A stretch of DNA of 8,441 nucleotides, taken from the UHGV virus genome UHGV-0193111; one strand, written 5' to 3'. This document shows positions 283 to 8,441 of this stretch, one piece after another. Both the position numbers and the translations under genes were made by a program. How positions within the stretch are numbered: position 1 is the stretch's first letter; each line of letters opens with the position of its first letter. This DNA comes from a virus. The notes under the pieces are model-generated. The model was not told where the DNA came from. It ran no database searches and saw nothing but the letters and a program-made list of their open reading frames with translations.

Positions 283-603
283 TCAGGCTTTTTCTAGCGT
301 ACACAGCAATGGATGCTCATTCTCCCTCGCGTACTTGTTCACCATCGCCACTTTGGTTTCTGCAACCTCGGCGGTAAAGACTCCGCAAATGGCCTTCCCC
401 TGGTAGTGAACAGCGAGCATCAATTGCGTTGCACGTTCTACATCATAAGAAAAGAATTTTTGTAACACGTCAATAACAAACTCCATCGGAGTGTAATCAT
501 CATTGACTAATATCACTTTATACATAGATGGCGGTTTTAGCGCGTCGCGAACTTTTTCTTCCGCCAGTTGATCAAAGTCCAGCCAGTCGTTCGTTTTACC
601 CAT
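283..603 (-). CDS. clpS: ATP-dependent Clp protease adaptor protein ClpS
   Basis: 106-aa ORF ([51 protein letters not shown]...) matches my recollection of E. coli ClpS over its full length. Correct size and position upstream of clpA. Confidence 0.95.
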
Positions 604-1767: not shown

Positions 1768-1920
1768 CCCGTTACGGGGCGGCGACCTCGCGGTTTTTCG
1801 CTATTTATGAGCTTTTTCATGGGGGGGTGGTGGTTTTGTTGCTTGCTCTATCTCCATGAATAAAAAGGGAAAGATAACACCAACACACCAACCTGAAACC
1901 TTGACCAAGTTGGGATATTG
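1768..1920 (+). other. cos site 1: lambda-type cosN (cohesive-end sequence GGGCGGCGACCT at 1777-1788) plus a diverged cosB-like leader with tandem ACACCAAC repeat (1877-1892), directly upstream of terS
   Basis: 1768-1812 cccgttacggggcggcgacctcgcggtttttcgctatttatga is near-identical to the phage lambda left end and cosN junction as I recall it (GGGCGGCGACCTCGCGGGTTTTCGCTATTTATGA). Same position and orientation relative to the Nu1-like gene as in lambda. Confidence 0.8.
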
Positions 1921-2463
1921 ATGAAATCGCACCTGATGAACAAAAAAACCATGGCGCAAAGCTGCCGGGTAAGTGCTACAGCATTCGACAAGTGGGGAGT
2001 GACTCCCGTTGAACGTAAAGGCCGTGAGGCGTTTTATGATGTTGCCAGCGTGATAGACAATAGGGTTAACAATGCAATTAGCCAGCTTACAAACGACAAA
2101 GGCGAGATTGATGATGATGAACTCTTACGAGTCAGGATCAGATTACTGACAGCACAGGCGGAGGCGCAGGAACTTAAAAACGAGCGCGATCGCGGTGACG
2201 TGATTGATACAGAGTTTTGCATGTACGCGCTTTCAAAACTGGCGAGTCAGATTTCATCAATCATGGACAGCCTCCCGCTTACTATGCAAAGGAGCTTCCC
2301 ACACATTACCCCCGCTATGCTGGATGGGCTTAAAAGGGAAGTGGTTAAAGCCTGTAATGCCAGTGCCAGAGTTGCCGACAACCTCCCACAGATACTGGCT
2401 GATTACCTGAACGAAACAACCGGAAACGTACCGGAAAAGTTGCTACAGAAGAAAGGCGAGTAA
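1921..2463 (+). CDS. terS: Terminase small subunit, lambda Nu1-like
   Basis: Product aligns along most of its length with lambda Nu1 as I recall it (YDVASVI vs YDSAAVI; RLLTAQAEAQELKNERD vs RLTRAQADAQELKNARD; FCMYALSKLASQISSIMDSLPLTMQRSFP vs FCTFVLSRIAGEIASILDGLPLSVQRRFP; LKREVVKACN vs LKRDIIKAMN). ORF track starts at TTG 1918. First ATG is 1921; ATG 1936 (MNKK...) matches the Nu1 N-terminus MEVNKK best. Weak RBS for either. Confidence 0.85.
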   Translation: MKSHLMNKKTMAQSCRVSATAFDKWGVTPVERKGREAFYDVASVIDNRVNNAISQLTNDKGEIDDDELLRVRIRLLTAQAEAQELKNERDRGDVIDTEFCMYALSKLASQISSIMDSLPLTMQRSFPHITPAMLDGLKREVVKACNASARVADNLPQILADYLNETTGNVPEKLLQKKGE

Positions 2464-2716: not shown

Positions 2717-3130
2717 TCAGATGGTTTTCAGTATGCGATCGATGTCGCCGTCATCGCCCTGGTTTCTGCCATCGTATGCCATGCCAGCTGATACGGCTTG
2801 CGGGCTGTGCATGTCCATAAAGTTTTCAAAGGCTGCGGTAAGCTCTGGTGCAACCTTTGGGCGCTCCTGCTCTATGGTCATGTTCAGGATTTCACGAGCA
2901 TTATCGACGCTAATACATGGCACGTTTGCCATTGCACGTAACAGCGGCTGATAGTCTTTATGCTCATGAAGCGCCATAATCGCATCAGCGCGCGGCTTGT
3001 CCTGCTCTTCCAGTTTGTTGAGTTGATATACGGCCTCGTAGGTTGATAAACCTCTGTCAGCCATTGCCCGCGCTTCTTCTTTAAATTTACTCGCCAGCGG
3101 TAGCGCCATGATGCTTTCATTCGTTGCCAT
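2717..3130 (-). CDS. Hypothetical protein, 137 aa, last gene of the capsid operon
   Basis: ORF with ATG at 3130 preceded by AGGGGGAA RBS, 12 bp after the decoration-protein stop; followed by a terminator. No family recognised; not obviously lambda FI or FII. Confidence 0.65.
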   Translation of the reverse strand: MATNESIMALPLASKFKEEARAMADRGLSTYEAVYQLNKLEEQDKPRADAIMALHEHKDYQPLLRAMANVPCISVDNAREILNMTIEQERPKVAPELTAAFENFMDMHSPQAVSAGMAYDGRNQGDDGDIDRILKTI

Positions 3131-3142
3131 CGTTCCCCCTGC

Positions 3143-3478
3143 TTATCGGGCCAGCGGCTGAACGGATACGCCGGAACCCGCAAAGGCGGCGCATTTTTTC
3201 GCATCGGTGTCGACGCTCTCAGGCCAGTTAACGGCGGCAATATTGAATATCCCCGTCTTGTAACACTGTGCTGATTTCTGCTTTGACGTGTCCACAGGAT
3301 ACGAAGTCAGATAAACAGCCTTGCCAGATTCCTGACCATCCCACGGCTTAAACTCGCCATTGTCCGCCAGCATCAGCGGGGTAAATTCCTGAATAACGCC
3401 AGCATCAGCGGCAAAATGTACCAGCGTCGTTGATACCTGCTGACTGCCTGCAAATAACTCAATGTATGGAGTGTTCAT
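3143..3478 (-). CDS. Head decoration protein, lambda gpD-like
   Basis: Product shares blocks with lambda gpD as I recall it (TPLML, WDG, YK-G-F, WPE, KK-AFAG, S-S-V) and has similar length (111 aa from ATG 3478; ORF track uses GTG 3487, 114 aa). Stop of the capsid gene lies 2 nt upstream of the GTG. Confidence 0.8.
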   Translation of the reverse strand: MNTPYIELFAGSQQVSTTLVHFAADAGVIQEFTPLMLADNGEFKPWDGQESGKAVYLTSYPVDTSKQKSAQCYKTGIFNIAAVNWPESVDTDAKKCAAFAGSGVSVQPLAR

Positions 3479-3489
3479 AGAATCCACCG

Positions 3490-4545
3490 TTAACCAATTT
3501 TGACGGTAACAAATTTGCGAATATCTGCCGGAACAGGCTGCGGTGCGCTGTGTGTCTGCACGTACTCAATCGCCGGATCGCCGTCTTCAATCCAGTTTTT
3601 CGGGTAAAACATGTTTTGCGTTGCGCCCGTTCTTACCGCTTCCTGTTCCATAATCGCACCATAGGCCACCAGCCCTTTATTGTTGGTGTTGCCCAGGACC
3701 AGCAAATCAGGCTCAAGGAAATATTTTTCTGTGCCGTCGCTGTCAGTGTATTTGCCGGAATAGACGATAAGGGCCAGATCACCAAGATAGCCTTTAAAGC
3801 TCACCACTTCTCCCAGGTTTTTACATGCCAGCTCTGCGGCGGATTCTGAACCACGGGAGAGATCGTACAGTTCACGGAATTTTTTAAAGCTGCGTAACAT
3901 GCGCCATACATCAACGCCCATAATCATGACGTTTGCGGGGCAACCTGCCTGATCTGCGTATAGCTCAATGTCATAGATTGGGTCGTGTATGTCTTTGTCC
4001 TGCTCTGACCATTTTTTACCGTCGGCCTGCTCTATGATGTTTTTTTCCGGTATCTTCCAGTCGATTTCATAGCGTTCTATGCCTTCGCCCTCAATGATGT
4101 TTTTTCCGGTCGTTATCGCATTCACCGCCATCCATTCCACGCGCGCTTTAATGGCGTTTATCTGGCGGCGCATGTTGCCAGTAATCAGGCGCATACGGCG
4201 GTAGGTAGGGTCGTTAAGCTGTGCCGGATCTTCTCCAGCCATGCGCATTATTGTTTTTAATGGATCGATTTCGTGTTTTGGCTTCATGTAGCCAGGGCGA
4301 ATAATGCTGGTTTCGTACCCTTTATCGCGCTGAACCTGGCTACCAACCATAGGCGAACAAAACGCCGACATAGTGACTTCTTCAATATCCAGGTTATCTA
4401 ACATGATGTCCTGTGTGTTGAATGTCGCCACGTTCGGGAAAAACAGCGCGGTAAACAGCGGACTGAATTTAAATTCCGCAATATCCTCGCGATTCAGGTA
4501 CGCGAAAAGCTGGTTAGTGTTAAGTGCCATTGCTTTGACTGCCAT
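3490..4545 (-). CDS. Major capsid protein, lambda gpE family
   Basis: 351-aa product shares many conserved blocks with lambda gpE as I recall it (FKF-PLF; PGY-KPKHE; DP-YRR-R; WS-RDK--DP-YDIE-YA; RSFK; GYLGD-A-VYSG-Y; LGNT--GL--YG-I; YPKNW--GDPA). ATG at 4545-4543 with GGGGGTGA RBS; start overlaps the stop of the upstream ORF (TAATG). Confidence 0.9.
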   Translation of the reverse strand: MAVKAMALNTNQLFAYLNREDIAEFKFSPLFTALFFPNVATFNTQDIMLDNLDIEEVTMSAFCSPMVGSQVQRDKGYETSIIRPGYMKPKHEIDPLKTIMRMAGEDPAQLNDPTYRRMRLITGNMRRQINAIKARVEWMAVNAITTGKNIIEGEGIERYEIDWKIPEKNIIEQADGKKWSEQDKDIHDPIYDIELYADQAGCPANVMIMGVDVWRMLRSFKKFRELYDLSRGSESAAELACKNLGEVVSFKGYLGDLALIVYSGKYTDSDGTEKYFLEPDLLVLGNTNNKGLVAYGAIMEQEAVRTGATQNMFYPKNWIEDGDPAIEYVQTHSAPQPVPADIRKFVTVKIG

Positions 4546-4751
4546 TATTCACCCCCATAATTTTTATGCATCCCAAGCGCCGCAAGTAAATAAGAGCGTA
4601 CAAGTGAACCTATCGACGGCTCCGGCGTCATCAGCGGATCCAGTCCAGCCGCCACGCCAGCCTCATAGTTTTTTTTGTGGCGCTGCTTGAGCACCTCCAC
4701 GATTTCGGGGCTTATGTACACCGAAACACCGCCTTTTTTCTCTTCTGCCAT
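4545..4751 (-). CDS. Hypothetical small protein, 68 aa, translationally coupled to the major capsid gene
   Basis: ATG at 4751 with AGAGGA RBS; stop overlaps the capsid gene start. First gene of the operon downstream of a palindromic promoter region. No family recognised (does not resemble lambda gpW despite equal length). Confidence 0.6.
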   Translation of the reverse strand: MAEEKKGGVSVYISPEIVEVLKQRHKKNYEAGVAAGLDPLMTPEPSIGSLVRSYLLAALGMHKNYGGE

Positions 4752-4779
4752 AGTCAGAAATTCCTCTTTGACTTAAAAA

Positions 4780-4818
4780 ATCACAACTGGATGTTCATCC
4801 AGTTATGATTATAATCAT
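4780..4818 (-). promoter_or_regulatory. Candidate promoter/operator of the capsid operon: inverted repeat AACTGGATG-n2-CATCCAGTT (4780-4799) and 14-bp perfect palindrome ATGATTATAATCAT (4805-4818) containing a consensus TATAAT
   Basis: Read directly from the sequence, 30-70 bp upstream of the 68-aa ORF start. No convincing -35 found, so promoter assignment is tentative. Confidence 0.4.
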
Positions 4819-4912
4819 GATTGCATTTTGCGCAATAAAATTGAGTTGTGTTGCAAATTATGAAATGATTTACAGCAACAGTAGTCACCATGCTGTTAAC
4901 CTCGTAAGCAAA

Positions 4913-4952
4913 AGCCCGATAAGCTTCCTCCTGTACTTATCGGGCTTTTTTT
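4913..4952 (+). terminator. Strong hairpin terminator (11-bp perfect stem AGCCCGATAAG/CTTATCGGGCT, then T7 on the plus strand); may also act on minus-strand transcripts (U4 on that side)
   Basis: Read directly from the sequence. No annotated plus-strand gene ends here, so it may insulate the two operons or terminate a small plus-strand RNA. Confidence 0.5.
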
Positions 4953-4958
4953 GGGTAC

Positions 4959-4980
4959 AAAAAGCCGGATTTTCTCCGGC
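4959..4980 (-). terminator. Rho-independent terminator after ssb (stem GCCGGA/TCCGGC, loop TTTTC, U5 on minus-strand transcript)
   Basis: Hairpin 4964-4980 with A5 at 4959-4963 on the plus strand, 9 bp downstream of the ssb stop; near-identical to the terminator at 2687-2710. Confidence 0.55.
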
Positions 4981-4988
4981 CTGTGCGT

Positions 4989-5399
4989 TCAGAACGGAAT
5001 ATCATCACCGTAGGGGTCATCGTCTCCCGCTGGTGGCTGATTACCCTGTGCGCCTGTGGTTTTGCGTCTGTTCCCGCCAGGACGTGCCGCACGGGCACTG
5101 ATTACGCTGTCTGCAATAACCTGATAACCCTGCCGCGTTTCCCCGTTCTGTCCGGTCCACTGGCTTATCTGCATCACGCCAGATATGCTGGCAACGTCGC
5201 CTTTTTGATGTTTAGCCAGGAAGTCGGCCTGCTTACCAAATGCCATCACCGATAGCCATAACGTAGCCGTTCCGTCATCTGCCTGGCTGCACGGAAGGGG
5301 GACCGCCATACGCGCCAGCGTCATCGGTGTGCCCTTGCTGGTCTGTTTTACCTGCGGGTCGTCCACCAGCCGCCCGTAAGCTGCTATCTGTGCTGTCAT
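4989..5399 (-). CDS. ssb: Single-stranded DNA-binding protein
   Basis: 136-aa product with an SSB-like OB-fold core (FGK...KGD...ISG...W...GE-R) and a Gly/Pro-rich linker ending in the acidic tail DDDPYGDDIPF, the hallmark SSB C-terminal motif. Start ATG overlaps the upstream ORF stop (ATGA). Confidence 0.85.
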   Translation of the reverse strand: MTAQIAAYGRLVDDPQVKQTSKGTPMTLARMAVPLPCSQADDGTATLWLSVMAFGKQADFLAKHQKGDVASISGVMQISQWTGQNGETRQGYQVIADSVISARAARPGGNRRKTTGAQGNQPPAGDDDPYGDDIPF

Positions 5400-5647
5400 G
5401 CTGTCTGCTCTCCGGTTTTAACGTTGATGGTTGTTACCTGTTCCGCTTCGGCAATCTCCCGCTCTGTCAGCGTGGCAAAATTTGCCGCCGCCGTGGTCAT
5501 GAATGCGCTTATCAGGTCGGGATGTTCCTTCGCGTATCCTTCCCGCGTGTGGCGGTCTATCGTTCTGATTGCCACCTTTAAGGTGTGCTCAGTCATGTCT
5601 AACGCTTTATATTTTGGCTCTGTTCTGTCTCTGCGTGTTCTGGTCAT
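5396..5647 (-). CDS. Hypothetical protein, 83 aa, translationally coupled to ssb
   Basis: ATG at 5647 with GAGGTGG RBS (ORF track starts 4 codons earlier at TTG 5659); stop overlaps the ssb start. No family recognised. Confidence 0.55.
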   Translation of the reverse strand: MTRTRRDRTEPKYKALDMTEHTLKVAIRTIDRHTREGYAKEHPDLISAFMTTAAANFATLTEREIAEAEQVTTINVKTGEQTA

Positions 5648-5660
5648 TTGCCACCTCAAT

Positions 5661-5999
5661 TTATATATATATATAGAAACATGTGCGGGTTATGCGGGTT
5701 ATTGGGTTATCTTAGCGTGCTAACCATTTTTTATCCTTTTATATCAGTATTTTGCAAAACACCCTGTTTATTATTTGCTCACCACGTAACCCGCAAAACG
5801 CTCAAAATAACCCGCAAACGGGGTTTTTTCTGCGGGTTACGCATGACTGTCCGGTGTTACTTCAGTTATTCGCCTGCGGGTTATAATCGTGCTTTTGCGG
5901 GTTATAAATGCCCTTTTGCGGGTTACGTGCGGGTTATTGGTTTCCTTTATATTCATGCACTTAATACACTTATACACAGGATAACCCGCATAACCCGCA
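5661..5999. repeat. Putative replication origin: iteron array of 11 perfect TGCGGGTTA 9-mers (plus strand at 5684, 5693, 5831, 5875, 5896, 5917, 5928; inverted at 5787, 5808, 5982, 5991) with AT-rich tracts including (TA)n at 5661-5676
   Basis: Repeats read directly from the sequence; several pairs spaced 21 bp (5787/5808; 5875/5896/5917), tandem pairs at both edges in opposite orientation. Located immediately downstream of the primase/helicase gene, as is typical for Pri-Rep plus ori modules of phage-inducible islands. Confidence 0.75.
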
Positions 6000-6021
6000 A
6001 TTTTTTTCCTCACACAGGGGA

Positions 6022-8145
6022 TTAATCTTCATCATCAGGCTGGAACATCAGCACGTAAAAAACATGCTGCTTACCCCCAATCTTGCCCAGCGCCTTTTTT
6101 TTGTATCGGCGATCGCTTCCCTTCTCCAGCATTCCGGCAGCATCCAGGGCACGCGCAAAATGCGCCGGATTAAATCCCTTCGCTATCTCACTATCAAACA
6201 CGTGCGGGAACGTGTAATAGCGCATCTCGTCATCTTCGTTGCGAATGCTCCCTTTTCTGTATCCGGCAAGCTCTTTAATCGGTAAATCACGCTCATCTGT
6301 ATTGGGGTACGGAAGGTAGCGGCTAAACCCAAACGACGACAAAAACGCCTCAGCCTGTTCAACCATCTGTTTAAATTCCCTGTTACCCGTGCCGAACTCC
6401 TTCACCCAGGCATTAAAGTTATGCTGTATCGCGTCGCAGCATTCCTGCACGACCCAGCCAGTTACATGACCGGAAAGCACAAGCGCGGCCTCCAGTATGG
6501 CGAAACGTTCACCCACGCGGTGGACCTGCTCGCCGTAACTCTCCGGTATCAGGTTGCGCCACCGTTCGCGGCATTCCCTTACCGTGTCCTTTGCCTCCTG
6601 CTGGTGGCCTGCCAGCCATTTAACCCACTCACGACCCGCCGCCCCGTGATTTGCTGTCCAGGCATCCTTTAACGCGTCAGCATGTTCCTTACCGTTGCTG
6701 TATTCGTGAAATTTCGTGGCTTTTTCCATCGGAACGTTAAGCAGTCGGACAAGCTGCCCCGCCTTAACTTTTATCCCCTCACTTTTGAGGAATGTCTCAA
6801 CGTCCATTTCTCCGGTGCTGATTGCCACCGTTCGCCAGTGTTTGATCTCCCTGTTGCCGCCATCCTTCGCCCCCTGCAATTTCCCTGAACCGTTAAACAG
6901 CGTATAAGCAGACGTTGACACTTCCCGCGCATTTCCGGCCTGGCCTATCTCATCCAGTGGTAAAAGCCCGTCATTATGGGCCTCGGCCTCATTGGCAATA
7001 CCTAACGCCGTGCCGTACCAGGTCAGCCGCTGCGCGTCCGGCTCTCCCCATAAACTTGATGCGATGTTCTGCGTGGTGGTCTTACCTGCCGATGACTGTT
7101 CGAAAAGATGCACCCCGAAGCCGTCAGCACCCACAAGGCCAATTAAAGGCGCTGCCAGTGACGTTGCCACACCCAGCATCATTGAGGCATTACCGCCAGC
7201 CAGCCGCGCCACGCTGTCGCGCCAGCCATCCGCCGTGCCAGCCACGGAATAACCGTTAATCGCGGCGCTTTTTCCGGTAAACAGGATCGGTTTTTCAGAT
7301 TCACCAATGATCGAACCGTCCGGCATGATGTACGCGCCAAAATGCCAGCCCGTTGTTGTGCTTAACTGCCATTCCTCATGGCTTCCGCTTAACTGCATCC
7401 AGTCCGCCAGGATTGCCCTGTATTTGCCGTTGGTTGTCACGTTCAGCCCGTGATCTTTAAGTAACCGCCAGCCGTCACGGTCGCCGATACCACCACACGG
7501 GATCGCCATTGTGATGACTTCATGGTTTGCGGTTTTTTTCCAGCGCATCACGCGGTAATGCTCTTTACCGATCGTCCCCGTTCCCAGTAGTTCAAGCGGA
7601 GAACATAACCACGTCTCAGGCCGGATAATTTCGCCTGACTGCTTATCCACTTTGGGCGTTACCCAGAAAACACCATCGGCGCGACTTTCAACGCGTGGCT
7701 TTAATTCGTCATCGCTATGACTTCCGGTATCTTTTTTCTTTACCGGAAGCTCAATAACCAGACCATCAGAAAGATTCTGCCGCTCACGGGCCAGATATTC
7801 GCGCCAGTTCTCCACCTTCTGAACGTGCATTCCATCAGGGTAAAAATTTGCATCCTGTACGCCTGCCGCCGCCAGCTTCTGACCAATCGCCTTGATCATT
7901 ACTGGCTCAAGATGTCCGGCCCTGAATATGCGTACTGATTTTCGGCCTTCCGGCACAATTTGCAGCTTATCCAGTTCGGCAAGTTGTTGCTCTCCAAGCC
8001 AGACAGGAGGCACGTTATCGCCAGCCAGTCGCCCGTCCTGTTCCTGCCACTGCTTCGCATGTGCCCACGCATCACTACCCGCAAAAATGATGACTTCCGT
8101 CATTTTGTCACGTGGCTGGTGTTTTAAATTTGGCGCTTTTTTCAT
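6022..8145 (-). CDS. Replication initiator of primase/helicase type (P-loop NTPase; Pri-Rep-like); exact family not resolved
   Basis: 707 aa from ATG 8145 with GGAGAG RBS (ORF track uses GTG 8160, 712 aa). Contains a Walker A-like SSAGKTT and a Walker B-like LLPLDE motif. Large size and position directly upstream of an iteron array. Start overlaps the stop of the upstream ORF (ATGA). Confidence 0.8.
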   Translation of the reverse strand: MKKAPNLKHQPRDKMTEVIIFAGSDAWAHAKQWQEQDGRLAGDNVPPVWLGEQQLAELDKLQIVPEGRKSVRIFRAGHLEPVMIKAIGQKLAAAGVQDANFYPDGMHVQKVENWREYLARERQNLSDGLVIELPVKKKDTGSHSDDELKPRVESRADGVFWVTPKVDKQSGEIIRPETWLCSPLELLGTGTIGKEHYRVMRWKKTANHEVITMAIPCGGIGDRDGWRLLKDHGLNVTTNGKYRAILADWMQLSGSHEEWQLSTTTGWHFGAYIMPDGSIIGESEKPILFTGKSAAINGYSVAGTADGWRDSVARLAGGNASMMLGVATSLAAPLIGLVGADGFGVHLFEQSSAGKTTTQNIASSLWGEPDAQRLTWYGTALGIANEAEAHNDGLLPLDEIGQAGNAREVSTSAYTLFNGSGKLQGAKDGGNREIKHWRTVAISTGEMDVETFLKSEGIKVKAGQLVRLLNVPMEKATKFHEYSNGKEHADALKDAWTANHGAAGREWVKWLAGHQQEAKDTVRECRERWRNLIPESYGEQVHRVGERFAILEAALVLSGHVTGWVVQECCDAIQHNFNAWVKEFGTGNREFKQMVEQAEAFLSSFGFSRYLPYPNTDERDLPIKELAGYRKGSIRNEDDEMRYYTFPHVFDSEIAKGFNPAHFARALDAAGMLEKGSDRRYKKKALGKIGGKQHVFYVLMFQPDDED

Positions 8146-8441
8146 TTCTGCTCTCTCCACGCGGCAATCATGTTTTTTAGTTCCTGTAGTTTTTTATCAA
8201 CATCCATACATGACACATGGTTATTTCTGGAAAGCGGGATTTCCCGCCTGAATCTGCTAATAAAGATCTCCACGTTCAGCGAACTAAGAAATGAATAGCC
8301 ATCACGGATAAAATACACACGGTCAAACATCAGTTCTTTTACCGTTACTCTGTTACCGTTCTTATCCAGATAAATAGCGCCGGGGATAATTTGGGGGTGT
8401 GCATAACCGCTGGCAGTCAAGCCAGATAAATATGTTCTCAT
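8142..8441 (-). CDS. Hypothetical protein, at least 99 aa; may continue beyond the window end
   Basis: Open frame runs to the window edge (an ATG happens to sit at 8441-8439); stop overlaps the primase start. No family recognised; not AlpA-like. Confidence 0.45.
   Translation of the reverse strand: MRTYLSGLTASGYAHPQIIPGAIYLDKNGNRVTVKELMFDRVYFIRDGYSFLSSLNVEIFISRFRREIPLSRNNHVSCMDVDKKLQELKNMIAAWREQK

Follow-up and report, generated by a model that had tools for sequence, protein, structure and literature searches.

Replication module of a probable EcCICFT073/EcCIEDL933-type chromosomal island in UHGV-0193111: a DUF927 helicase, an iteron origin and an adjoining SSB gene

Introduction

The phage-inducible chromosomal islands (PICIs) of Gram-negative bacteria have two Escherichia coli prototypes, EcCICFT073 and EcCIEDL933, and helper-dependent induction, replication and transfer have been demonstrated for these two only (PMC6092414; bioRxiv 2022.09.08.507074). 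For EcCICFT073, pri-rep together with ori suffices for plasmid maintenance in DH5alpha, and the regulator RgdR is encoded in all E. coli PICIs analysed by Fillol-Salom 2018 (PMC6092414). RgdR, a protein with a DUF4222 domain, activates LEE1 in the LEE (locus of enterocyte effacement) and with it type III secretion, represses motility and binds DNA only non-specifically; DUF4222 also occurs in strains that lack LEE (Flockhart 2012, PMC3378721). An SSB (single-stranded DNA-binding protein) gene is drawn as conserved in OI-51, CFT073 and ED1a (Flockhart 2012, Fig. 3, PMC3378721), and in the "Replication" category of Mageeney 2023 (PMC10111431) primase, SSB and DUF5906 genes colocalize with a mapped origin. 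Here we describe positions 4989-8441 of the UHGV virus genome UHGV-0193111, a stretch of 8,441 nucleotides (nt) that is referred to as the window. The region very probably serves as the replication module of a PICI of EcCICFT073/EcCIEDL933 type that sits between the E. coli genes clpS and cspD.

According to a first-pass annotation of this DNA, a satellite has its replication genes here, comprising an initiator, an origin embedded among the genes and an SSB of its own; this is borne out below, and the origin is of the iteron type. It had taken P4 as the frame of reference; the appropriate frame is the Gram-negative PICI, where an SSB beside initiator and origin is the usual layout. The module is an ordinary one of a previously published type, as the same layout and nearly the same sequence are on record for the O157:H7 and CFT073 islands.

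Results

Gene layout and island identity

The module consists of four consecutive minus-strand genes, in agreement with the initial description. In the direction of transcription these are a 99-amino-acid (aa) open reading frame (ORF) of the DUF4222/RgdR family (8142-8441), the initiator gene (6022-8145; 707 aa from ATG), an 83-aa ORF of the phrog_1231 family (5396-5647; from an ATG behind a GAGGTG Shine-Dalgarno sequence) and ssb (4989-5399; 136 aa). A non-coding origin (5648-6021) separates the second gene from the third, and two terminator-like hairpins with U-runs (4905-4988, minus strand) stand directly 3' of ssb. In strain N10 (L001), a collinear island of ~11 kb lies between clpS and cspD and is 98.6% identical over 4989-8441; its RefSeq annotation holds the same four replication coding sequences (CDSs) with identical ends. 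The annotated order in N10 is integrase, helix-turn-helix (HTH) regulator, YlcI, Icd-like, hypothetical, DUF4222, DUF927, hypothetical, SSB, PerC, hypothetical, capsid, decoration, hypothetical and terS. The tyrosine integrase and the HTH regulator fall outside the window and are found upstream on the same strand in the N10 island. Island size (PICIs of this kind span about 10-15 kb), a dedicated chromosomal site and few packaging genes, with neither tail nor lysis genes, match a Gram-negative PICI. The chromosomal flank is represented at the window start by clpS (283-603, minus strand). The DNA of the 83-aa gene and ssb was found in 1851 of 5426 complete E. coli genomes, i.e. about one third.

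Purifying selection acts on all four genes (ratio of nonsynonymous to synonymous substitution rates, dN/dS, 0.08-0.55). The values are 0.08-0.24 for ssb, 0.15-0.25 for the initiator, 0.31-0.55 for the 83-aa gene and 0.29-0.51 for the rgdR alleles, and these low ratios indicate that all four are kept as coding genes.

Stop and start codons overlap as ATGA at 8142-8145, between the 99-aa ORF and the initiator (the strand reads CAGAAATGAAAAAAG), and at 5396-5399, between the 83-aa ORF and ssb (CAGCATGACAGC). Both overlaps are exactly where they had been placed, and they are conserved in related satellites. Eleven intact, hand-picked satellites were compared for this purpose and in the sections that follow (the window, L001-L006, L019 and L029-L031); the DUF4222/initiator overlap of 4 nt is kept in 10 of them, and of the 10 with a small post-origin ORF, 9 keep the overlap at its stop. 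The proposed chain of four coupled genes resolves into two separate pairs, split by the 374-bp non-coding origin. Tight coupling is also no special feature of the module: the neighbouring capsid genes are as densely packed, with an overlap of 1 nt between the 68-aa ORF and the capsid gene at 4545. We infer that the ATGA overlaps do no more than secure co-translation in a densely packed operon.

The post-ssb hairpins fold with -14.2 kcal/mol (z -3.8) and -22.1 kcal/mol (z -5.5), and no shuffled sequence was as stable. Consensus scans, which for promoters covered sigma-70 only, detected no promoter-like or terminator-like site on the minus strand within the module. As an internal sigma-70-like site is lacking and the hairpins after ssb are strong, the four genes probably form a single transcription unit that ends after ssb.

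An iteron origin between initiator and 83-aa gene

Between the initiator stop (6022) and the start of the 83-aa ORF (5647) lie 374 non-coding bp, the place that the first reading had assigned to the origin. Eleven copies of AACCCGCA are found here at 5684-5999, in both orientations. Including one stray copy at 3175 the window holds 12, compared to 0.4 expected, and none of 200 shuffles reached this number. The repeats take the form (T/Y)AACCCGCA and are grouped around AT-rich stretches; a (TA)n run is located at 5656-5680, and the GC content of the origin is 0.41 vs ~0.55 in the flanks. An initiator gene followed directly by an origin whose iterons flank AT-rich DNA is the layout depicted in Fig. 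2 of PMC6092414. The TAACCCGCA iterons of the window are also present in L001 and L005, and the other initiator classes carry different iterons.

The initiator: a DUF927 helicase with a probably degenerate N-terminal domain

DUF927 (PF06048) covers aa 168-435 of the initiator (1.6e-48; 166 bits vs a cut-off of 22.6 bits). Its Walker motifs, A (SSAGKTT) and B (LPLDEIG), are intact and align with those of the solved structures 8tch, a protein of a Staphylococcus aureus pathogenicity island (SaPI), and 5dgk, the Cch protein of the staphylococcal cassette chromosome mec (SCCmec). Profile searches returned these two entries with E-values of 1.3e-12 (8tch, aa 229-602) and 0.0028 (5dgk, aa 346-464), and the NCBIfam model of SCCmec Cch1 with 4e-10. 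As judged by these matches, the initiator is a DUF927 self-loading helicase of the SaPI Rep/SCCmec Cch type. A putative winged-helix domain (Pfam HTH_56) occupies the C-terminus (aa 632-701; 6043-6252, minus strand). It is the likely reader of the iterons, because the iterons co-vary with the helicase and C-terminal part of the protein.

The N-terminal alpha/beta domain (aa 1-128; 7762-8145, minus strand) looks Toprim-like by predicted fold only. An AlphaFold model of aa 1-163 is confident for residues 1-125, its closest structural neighbours are DnaG-type primases, and 21 columns are invariant in 25 homologs. Following strand 1, all 25 homologs have an invariant Ala (IIFAGxDAW) where the Toprim domains of related satellites have Glu (ITEGYA, IAEGLA, FTEGEK); strand 3 ends in RIFRAGH where relatives show AADND or PDYD, and DxD is absent. 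It should be noted that the register of these catalytic residues was set by eye from the predicted strands and that the Toprim-like assignment itself is weak.

No Pfam match to a Toprim, zinc-ribbon or AEP (archaeo-eukaryotic primase) domain was obtained, and the N-terminus remained blank even at E=10, whereas Pfam Toprim scores well in relatives. There is no Zn_Ribbon_Prim or CHC2 match and no Cys cluster in aa 1-160; the zinc ribbons of relatives score 1e-15 (L003) and 4e-9 (L015). A profile search of the PDB with the N-terminal alignment returned no match, and hhalign comparison of the N-terminal profile with a bona fide Toprim segment gave a probability of 0.5%. The Xenorhabdus relative (L015) combines Zn_Ribbon_Prim, Toprim_3 and DUF927, and its 52% identity to the window protein sets in only from aa 117 of the latter. 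These data lead us, with moderate confidence, to describe the initiator as a helicase-only protein whose primase-like domain has degenerated. They lend no support to its public name, "DNA primase", and of the earlier label "primase/helicase" only the second half can be retained, as no primase domain is detectable.

The SSB

The product of the fourth gene belongs to PF00436 (3.5e-15; 56.4 bits vs a 26-bit cut-off) and scores 52.8 bits with TIGR00621, slightly under the cut-off of 53.95 bits. Matches were obtained to 23 solved SSBs, the best being 1z9f (2.8e-10). The protein is built from an oligonucleotide-binding (OB) domain, a short linker and a C-terminal tip ending in YGDDIPF, so that the proposal of an element-encoded SSB with a DDIPF tail is upheld. 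The SSB is divergent, with 27% identity to that of E. coli. Of the four aromatics of E. coli SSB that stack on single-stranded DNA (W40, W54, F60 and W88), three align (W48, F54 and W81), and the W40 loop is shortened. Related islands end their SSBs in DGIPF, DNIPF or DETPF, and the tip D-x-(I/T)-P-F is kept in 5 of the 6 loci compared, with E-T-P-F in L003.

The two small ORFs

Both small ORFs had been described as lacking a recognisable family; profile searches assign each of them. The 83-aa ORF has no Pfam family but matches phrog_1231 along its whole length (2.4e-52; positions 1-82 of 83). Close homologs are confined to Escherichia, Shigella and Citrobacter, and an exhaustive profile search returned 731 representative clusters with the motif ID..FG.GYAK.HPELI.AFM.TAA.DF. 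All of 64 distant relatives tested match phrog_1231 and none matches Pfam. The predicted structure is a two-helix hairpin (predicted local distance difference test, pLDDT, 85.6) with a basic, variable N-terminus; a search for structural neighbours of the hairpin gave generic ones only, and a sequence search of the family against solved structures gave no significant match.

In islands of Nitrosomonas and Desulfobulbaceae the distant phrog_1231 genes adjoin alpA and DUF927 or DnaG-like genes. In Rhodobacterales and Neomegalonema (L022-L026) the ORF lies between the CoA-transferase subunit genes scoA and scoB, and further members are placed upstream of radA (L017, Nitrospiraceae) and next to smc (L020, Saprospiraceae) at chromosomal, non-mobile-looking loci. 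As a family, phrog_1231 is broad, uncharacterised and without a general link to SSB, and the 83-aa hairpin would be an accessory, specific neither to the initiator nor to the SSB.

The 99-aa ORF belongs to Pfam DUF4222 (PF13973; 1.4e-16) and to phrog_285, and is identical to the annotated CDS in L001. Compared with RgdR (ECs1581) it has equal length, equal position and 29% identity, and the RGD motif is replaced by PGA (P20-G21-A22). With this identity and PGA in place of RGD, the RgdR phenotype is not simply transferable to the window allele. A word-indexed search for DUF4222 relatives returned close alleles only, and a sequence search of the family against solved structures gave no significant match. 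Most plausibly, the 99-aa protein is a small RgdR-family regulator that binds DNA weakly. A role as replication modulator had been suggested for it; the published activity of RgdR concerns type III secretion and motility, not replication (PMC3378721).

Exchange of helicase core and origin between islands

The satellites differ in the helicase core of the initiator and in the iterons located directly downstream, which change together over the five initiator types compared. DUF927 cores go with TAACCCGCA, D5_N/DUF5906/Pox_D5 cores with GGTAGAYA, RepA-like AAA_25 cores with AAGTGGGGA, and the Zn-ribbon/Toprim/D5 form of L003 with GTAGGGATA. Conversely, the first 120-160 aa of DUF927, D5-type and RepA-type initiators share 75-80% mutual identity (L002, L004, L006). 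At the DNA level, 7733-8186 is 85% identical to CFT073 and Nissle, the remainder of the initiator gene being unrelated; mosaic breakpoints are seen within the DUF4222 gene, at its 3' end, and past the N-terminal domain. The constant flanks around a varying core and varying iterons indicate that helicase core and origin are exchanged as a cassette.

The small genes and ssb follow patterns of their own. Two main DUF4222 alleles assort independently of the helicase core and precede three unrelated cores. A phrog_1231 gene follows the origin in 9 of the 11 islands and an SSB gene is likewise present in 9, yet the two sets are not the same: the 83-aa gene is present without SSB in L004 and L019 and, beyond the eleven, in L015; L031 has SSB but not the 83-aa gene, as does L003, where a small ORF of unrelated kind precedes SSB. 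This free assortment shows that the small ORFs do not serve this initiator or SSB as dedicated partners, and for the 83-aa protein the gene neighbourhoods rule out the role of an obligate SSB partner. The further idea that the small ORFs target helper replication found no supporting evidence in this analysis.

Neighbouring genes and the terS/cos segment

The remainder of the window carries packaging genes: a Nu1-like terS, a scaffold-like ORF, a lambda D-like decoration gene and a lambda E-like capsid gene. From clpS to the first island ORF, ~800 bases (604-1430) hold no convincing gene and show patchy similarity to N10. A stretch at 2538-2692 shares 85-87% identity with the cos/terminase-binding region found in phage 21 and its lambdoid relatives, a resemblance that suggests a cos-packaged island. 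The segment 1746-2685, which includes terS (1918-2463, plus strand) and part of the cos-like region, has the opposite orientation in Nissle 1917 (L002) and N10 (L001), whose islands are collinear with the window elsewhere. An inverted repeat of 77 nt with 81% complementarity forms its boundaries (arms 1746-1822 and 2609-2685), and one arm falls within the cos-like stretch. Among complete E. coli genomes, just 5 have the terS junction of the window at full length (100% identity in two, 92% in three), compared with 100 for the Nissle-type junction. The segment may be an invertible terS/cos cassette or the product of recombination between two cos-like copies. The 137-aa ORF at 2717-3130 (minus strand) belongs to phrog_1999 and in addition aligns with the C-terminal portion of profiles for head-maturation proteases (phrog_53, 1.1e-10); from these matches it looks like a Nu3-type scaffold without the protease.

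On the other side of the capsid genes, related islands place a PerC/PchE-family gene between ssb and the 68-aa ORF (L001 9207-9455, L005 7773-8045, L006 7960-8208); at the corresponding position (4752-4988) the window has two terminator hairpins only. A ProQ/FinO-family gene is located directly 3' of ssb in L031 and L032. The related PICI L029 has an abortive-infection family gene and a TIR-domain gene at the island ends (207-968 and 8543-9418), which look like defence cargo in accessory slots. Rfam and tRNA scans of the whole window gave no match.

Discussion

The most likely course of events is the following. Induction by a helper phage would yield one long transcript, from the alpA side through the four genes and across the origin, with the ATGA overlaps keeping each small gene co-translated with its partner. 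The C-terminal winged-helix region of the initiator would bind the TAACCCGCA iterons, melt the AT-rich stretch and allow the protein to self-load as the replicative helicase. With neither a zinc ribbon nor the catalytic Glu and DxD of Toprim domains in the initiator, priming and synthesis would be left to host DnaG and Pol III. The island SSB would coat the unwound strands, its DDIPF tip engaging the same host partners, and probably acts as a dispensable booster that supplements host SSB during joint helper and satellite replication.

Several observations weigh against parts of this scheme. The promoter scan of the minus strand (4500-8441), which found no sigma-70-like site, was limited to the sigma-70 consensus. 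The C-terminal HTH_56 match (Cch HTH) stays below threshold, with 6.3e-4 and 1.1e-4 (20.2-22.7 bits vs a 26.2-bit cut-off), and a primase activity of the initiator that escapes recognition is conceivable. In the searchable literature, no functional study of a PICI SSB, the 83-aa protein or a DUF927 initiator was found. The SSB gene also occurs beside the complete Zn-ribbon/Toprim primase-helicase of L003, and it is absent from the apparently intact islands L004 and L019. From the latter it follows that SSB is not required for the module, and from the former that it is not a specific compensation for a lost primase; as an explanation of the SSB gene, compensation for the missing primase is thereby ruled out.

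Among the competing explanations, the one that fares best regards the DUF4222, 83-aa and SSB genes as cargo in a permissive co-transcribed slot, serving host reprogramming, counter-defence, SOS damping or helper interference. We consider it possible, if clearly less probable than a replication function. RgdR does activate LEE1, repress motility and bind DNA non-specifically (PMC3378721), pri-rep and ori alone replicate a plasmid (PMC6092414), the slot after ssb receives other cargo in the form of PerC/PchE and ProQ/FinO-family genes, and islands can look intact without SSB or without the 83-aa gene. However, the OB-fold residues and the host-partner tip of the SSB are under strong purifying selection (dN/dS 0.08-0.24), as fits a working replication SSB, and its position beside the origin is constant across initiator classes. 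None of the four proteins matched the PADLOC defence-system models. As for DUF4222, the window allele lacks the RGD motif that is important for the LEE phenotype, and the gene is present in strains without LEE (PMC3378721).

A more far-reaching proposal, which we rate as improbable, is that DUF4222, the dead Toprim-like domain, phrog_1231 and SSB form a helicase-independent recruitment kit, with phrog_1231 as a new small replisome adaptor. If true, the dead primase domain and the SSB tip would together deliver the origin, once melted, to the host's DnaG and Pol III or else to helper replication proteins, and any helicase core would be pluggable.

Slightly less probable still is an initiator whose N-terminal domain is an active primase of unrecognised kind, making the protein a true primase-helicase. 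The PHROG (phrog_1139) and RefSeq names do say primase, structural comparison places the domain nearest to DnaG-type primases, and it is strongly conserved (21 invariant columns in 25 homologs) and kept on three helicase cores. Against this stand the missing zinc ribbon, the invariant Ala at the Toprim Glu position together with the lack of DxD, the absence of a Pfam Toprim match where relatives score well, and the negative profile comparison.

Equally doubtful is the picture of a P4-like satellite with a primase/helicase, an acquired SSB and two chained orphan small proteins that modulate initiator or SSB or else attack the replication of the helper. In its favour, the ATGA overlaps exist and are conserved, the SSB is real, the 83-aa protein has no assigned function and P4 itself is not known to have an SSB. 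Against it, the layout equals that of the PICI prototypes, a P4-type AEP domain and sid/psu/delta-type genes are lacking, the packaging genes are of lambda type (E, D, Nu1) and the cos resembles that of phage 21, DUF4222 alleles combine freely with three classes of initiator, the 83-aa family and SSB each occur without the other, and distant 83-aa relatives lie between scoA and scoB or beside radA. P4-like identity is thus ruled out for the element, given that no AEP/Prim-Pol match was found, that its neighbours are of lambda E/D/Nu1 type with the phage-21-like cos, and that the island is collinear with a PICI-type element.

The reading as a PICI replication module with a helicase-only initiator adds modestly to what is published: a likely loss of primase chemistry, one N-terminal domain on three helicase cores, and the breadth of phrog_1231. 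The "primase"-annotated proteins of this lineage seem to have lost primase chemistry. The presence of the N-terminal domain on three unrelated cores points to a common partner, which could explain how the satellites gain access to host or helper replication.

Comparison with known systems

With P4 the module shares a satellite initiator-helicase that binds repeats at its own origin, and int and alpA/vis-type genes upstream (PMC6092414). It differs in lacking an AEP primase domain, crr/cnr, sid, psu and delta, and in having an SSB; the PICI authors themselves report only distant homology to P4 (PMC6092414).

SaPI Rep and SCCmec Cch resemble the initiator in the DUF927 core, the Walker motifs and the weak Cch HTH match, and in SaPIs the iteron origin is likewise found just downstream of the initiator gene. 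The relationship is distant (E 1.3e-12 and 0.003), and the window protein has an extra N-terminal region of 160 aa with a Toprim-like predicted fold; in SaPIs, primase is encoded by a separate gene (PMC6092414). The capsid-forming PICI of Xenorhabdus (L015) shows 52% identity over the helicase and C-terminal part and has an iteron origin and a phrog_1231 gene downstream. This island has a zinc ribbon and a recognisable Toprim domain, both of which are missing from the window protein, but no SSB.

EcCICFT073, the prototype Gram-negative PICI, has a DUF4222 gene (C1493), an initiator annotated "DNA primase family", an iteron origin, an 85-aa phrog_1231 ORF and SSB, followed by a PerC gene, a 68-aa ORF, capsid E, decoration D and a scaffold-like gene. 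Its initiator shares 79% identity with that of the window in the N-terminal domain, and the 83-aa/ssb DNA is 92% identical over most of its length. The differences lie in the initiator core and iterons (D5_N/DUF5906/Pox_D5 with GGTAGAYA vs DUF927 with TAACCCGCA), in the PerC gene after ssb and at the terS position of the window, where EcCICFT073 carries an unannotated 144-aa ORF, presumably Rpp.

EcCIEDL933, the prototype capsid-forming PICI, corresponds to O-island 51, CP-933C, and to Sp7 of O157:H7 Sakai, in which the order is ECs1581 (rgdR), ECs1582, the ori gap, ECs1586, ECs1587 (ssb) and pchE. RgdR (ECs1581) shares with the 99-aa protein the DUF4222 domain, the length of 99 aa and a position upstream of, and overlapping, the initiator gene. 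EcCIEDL933 differs from the window in its DUF4222 allele, which is only 29% identical, the RGD motif being absent from the window allele; in the presence of pchE after ssb; in HK97-like packaging (capsid, protease, portal, terL) as opposed to lambda-like packaging (E, D, Nu1); in its site, roxA-phoQ vs clpS-cspD; and in the SSB tip, which is DGIPF in Sakai vs DDIPF. The two islands agree in gene order, in both 4-nt overlaps and in the 11 TAACCCGCA iterons, and identity to Sakai Sp7 is 97% for the initiator (ECs1582), 94% for the 83-aa ORF (ECs1586) and 93% for SSB (ECs1587). The module, its origin type, the RgdR gene and the adjoining SSB are published features of E. coli PICIs, found here in a copy that is 93-97% identical to EcCIEDL933.

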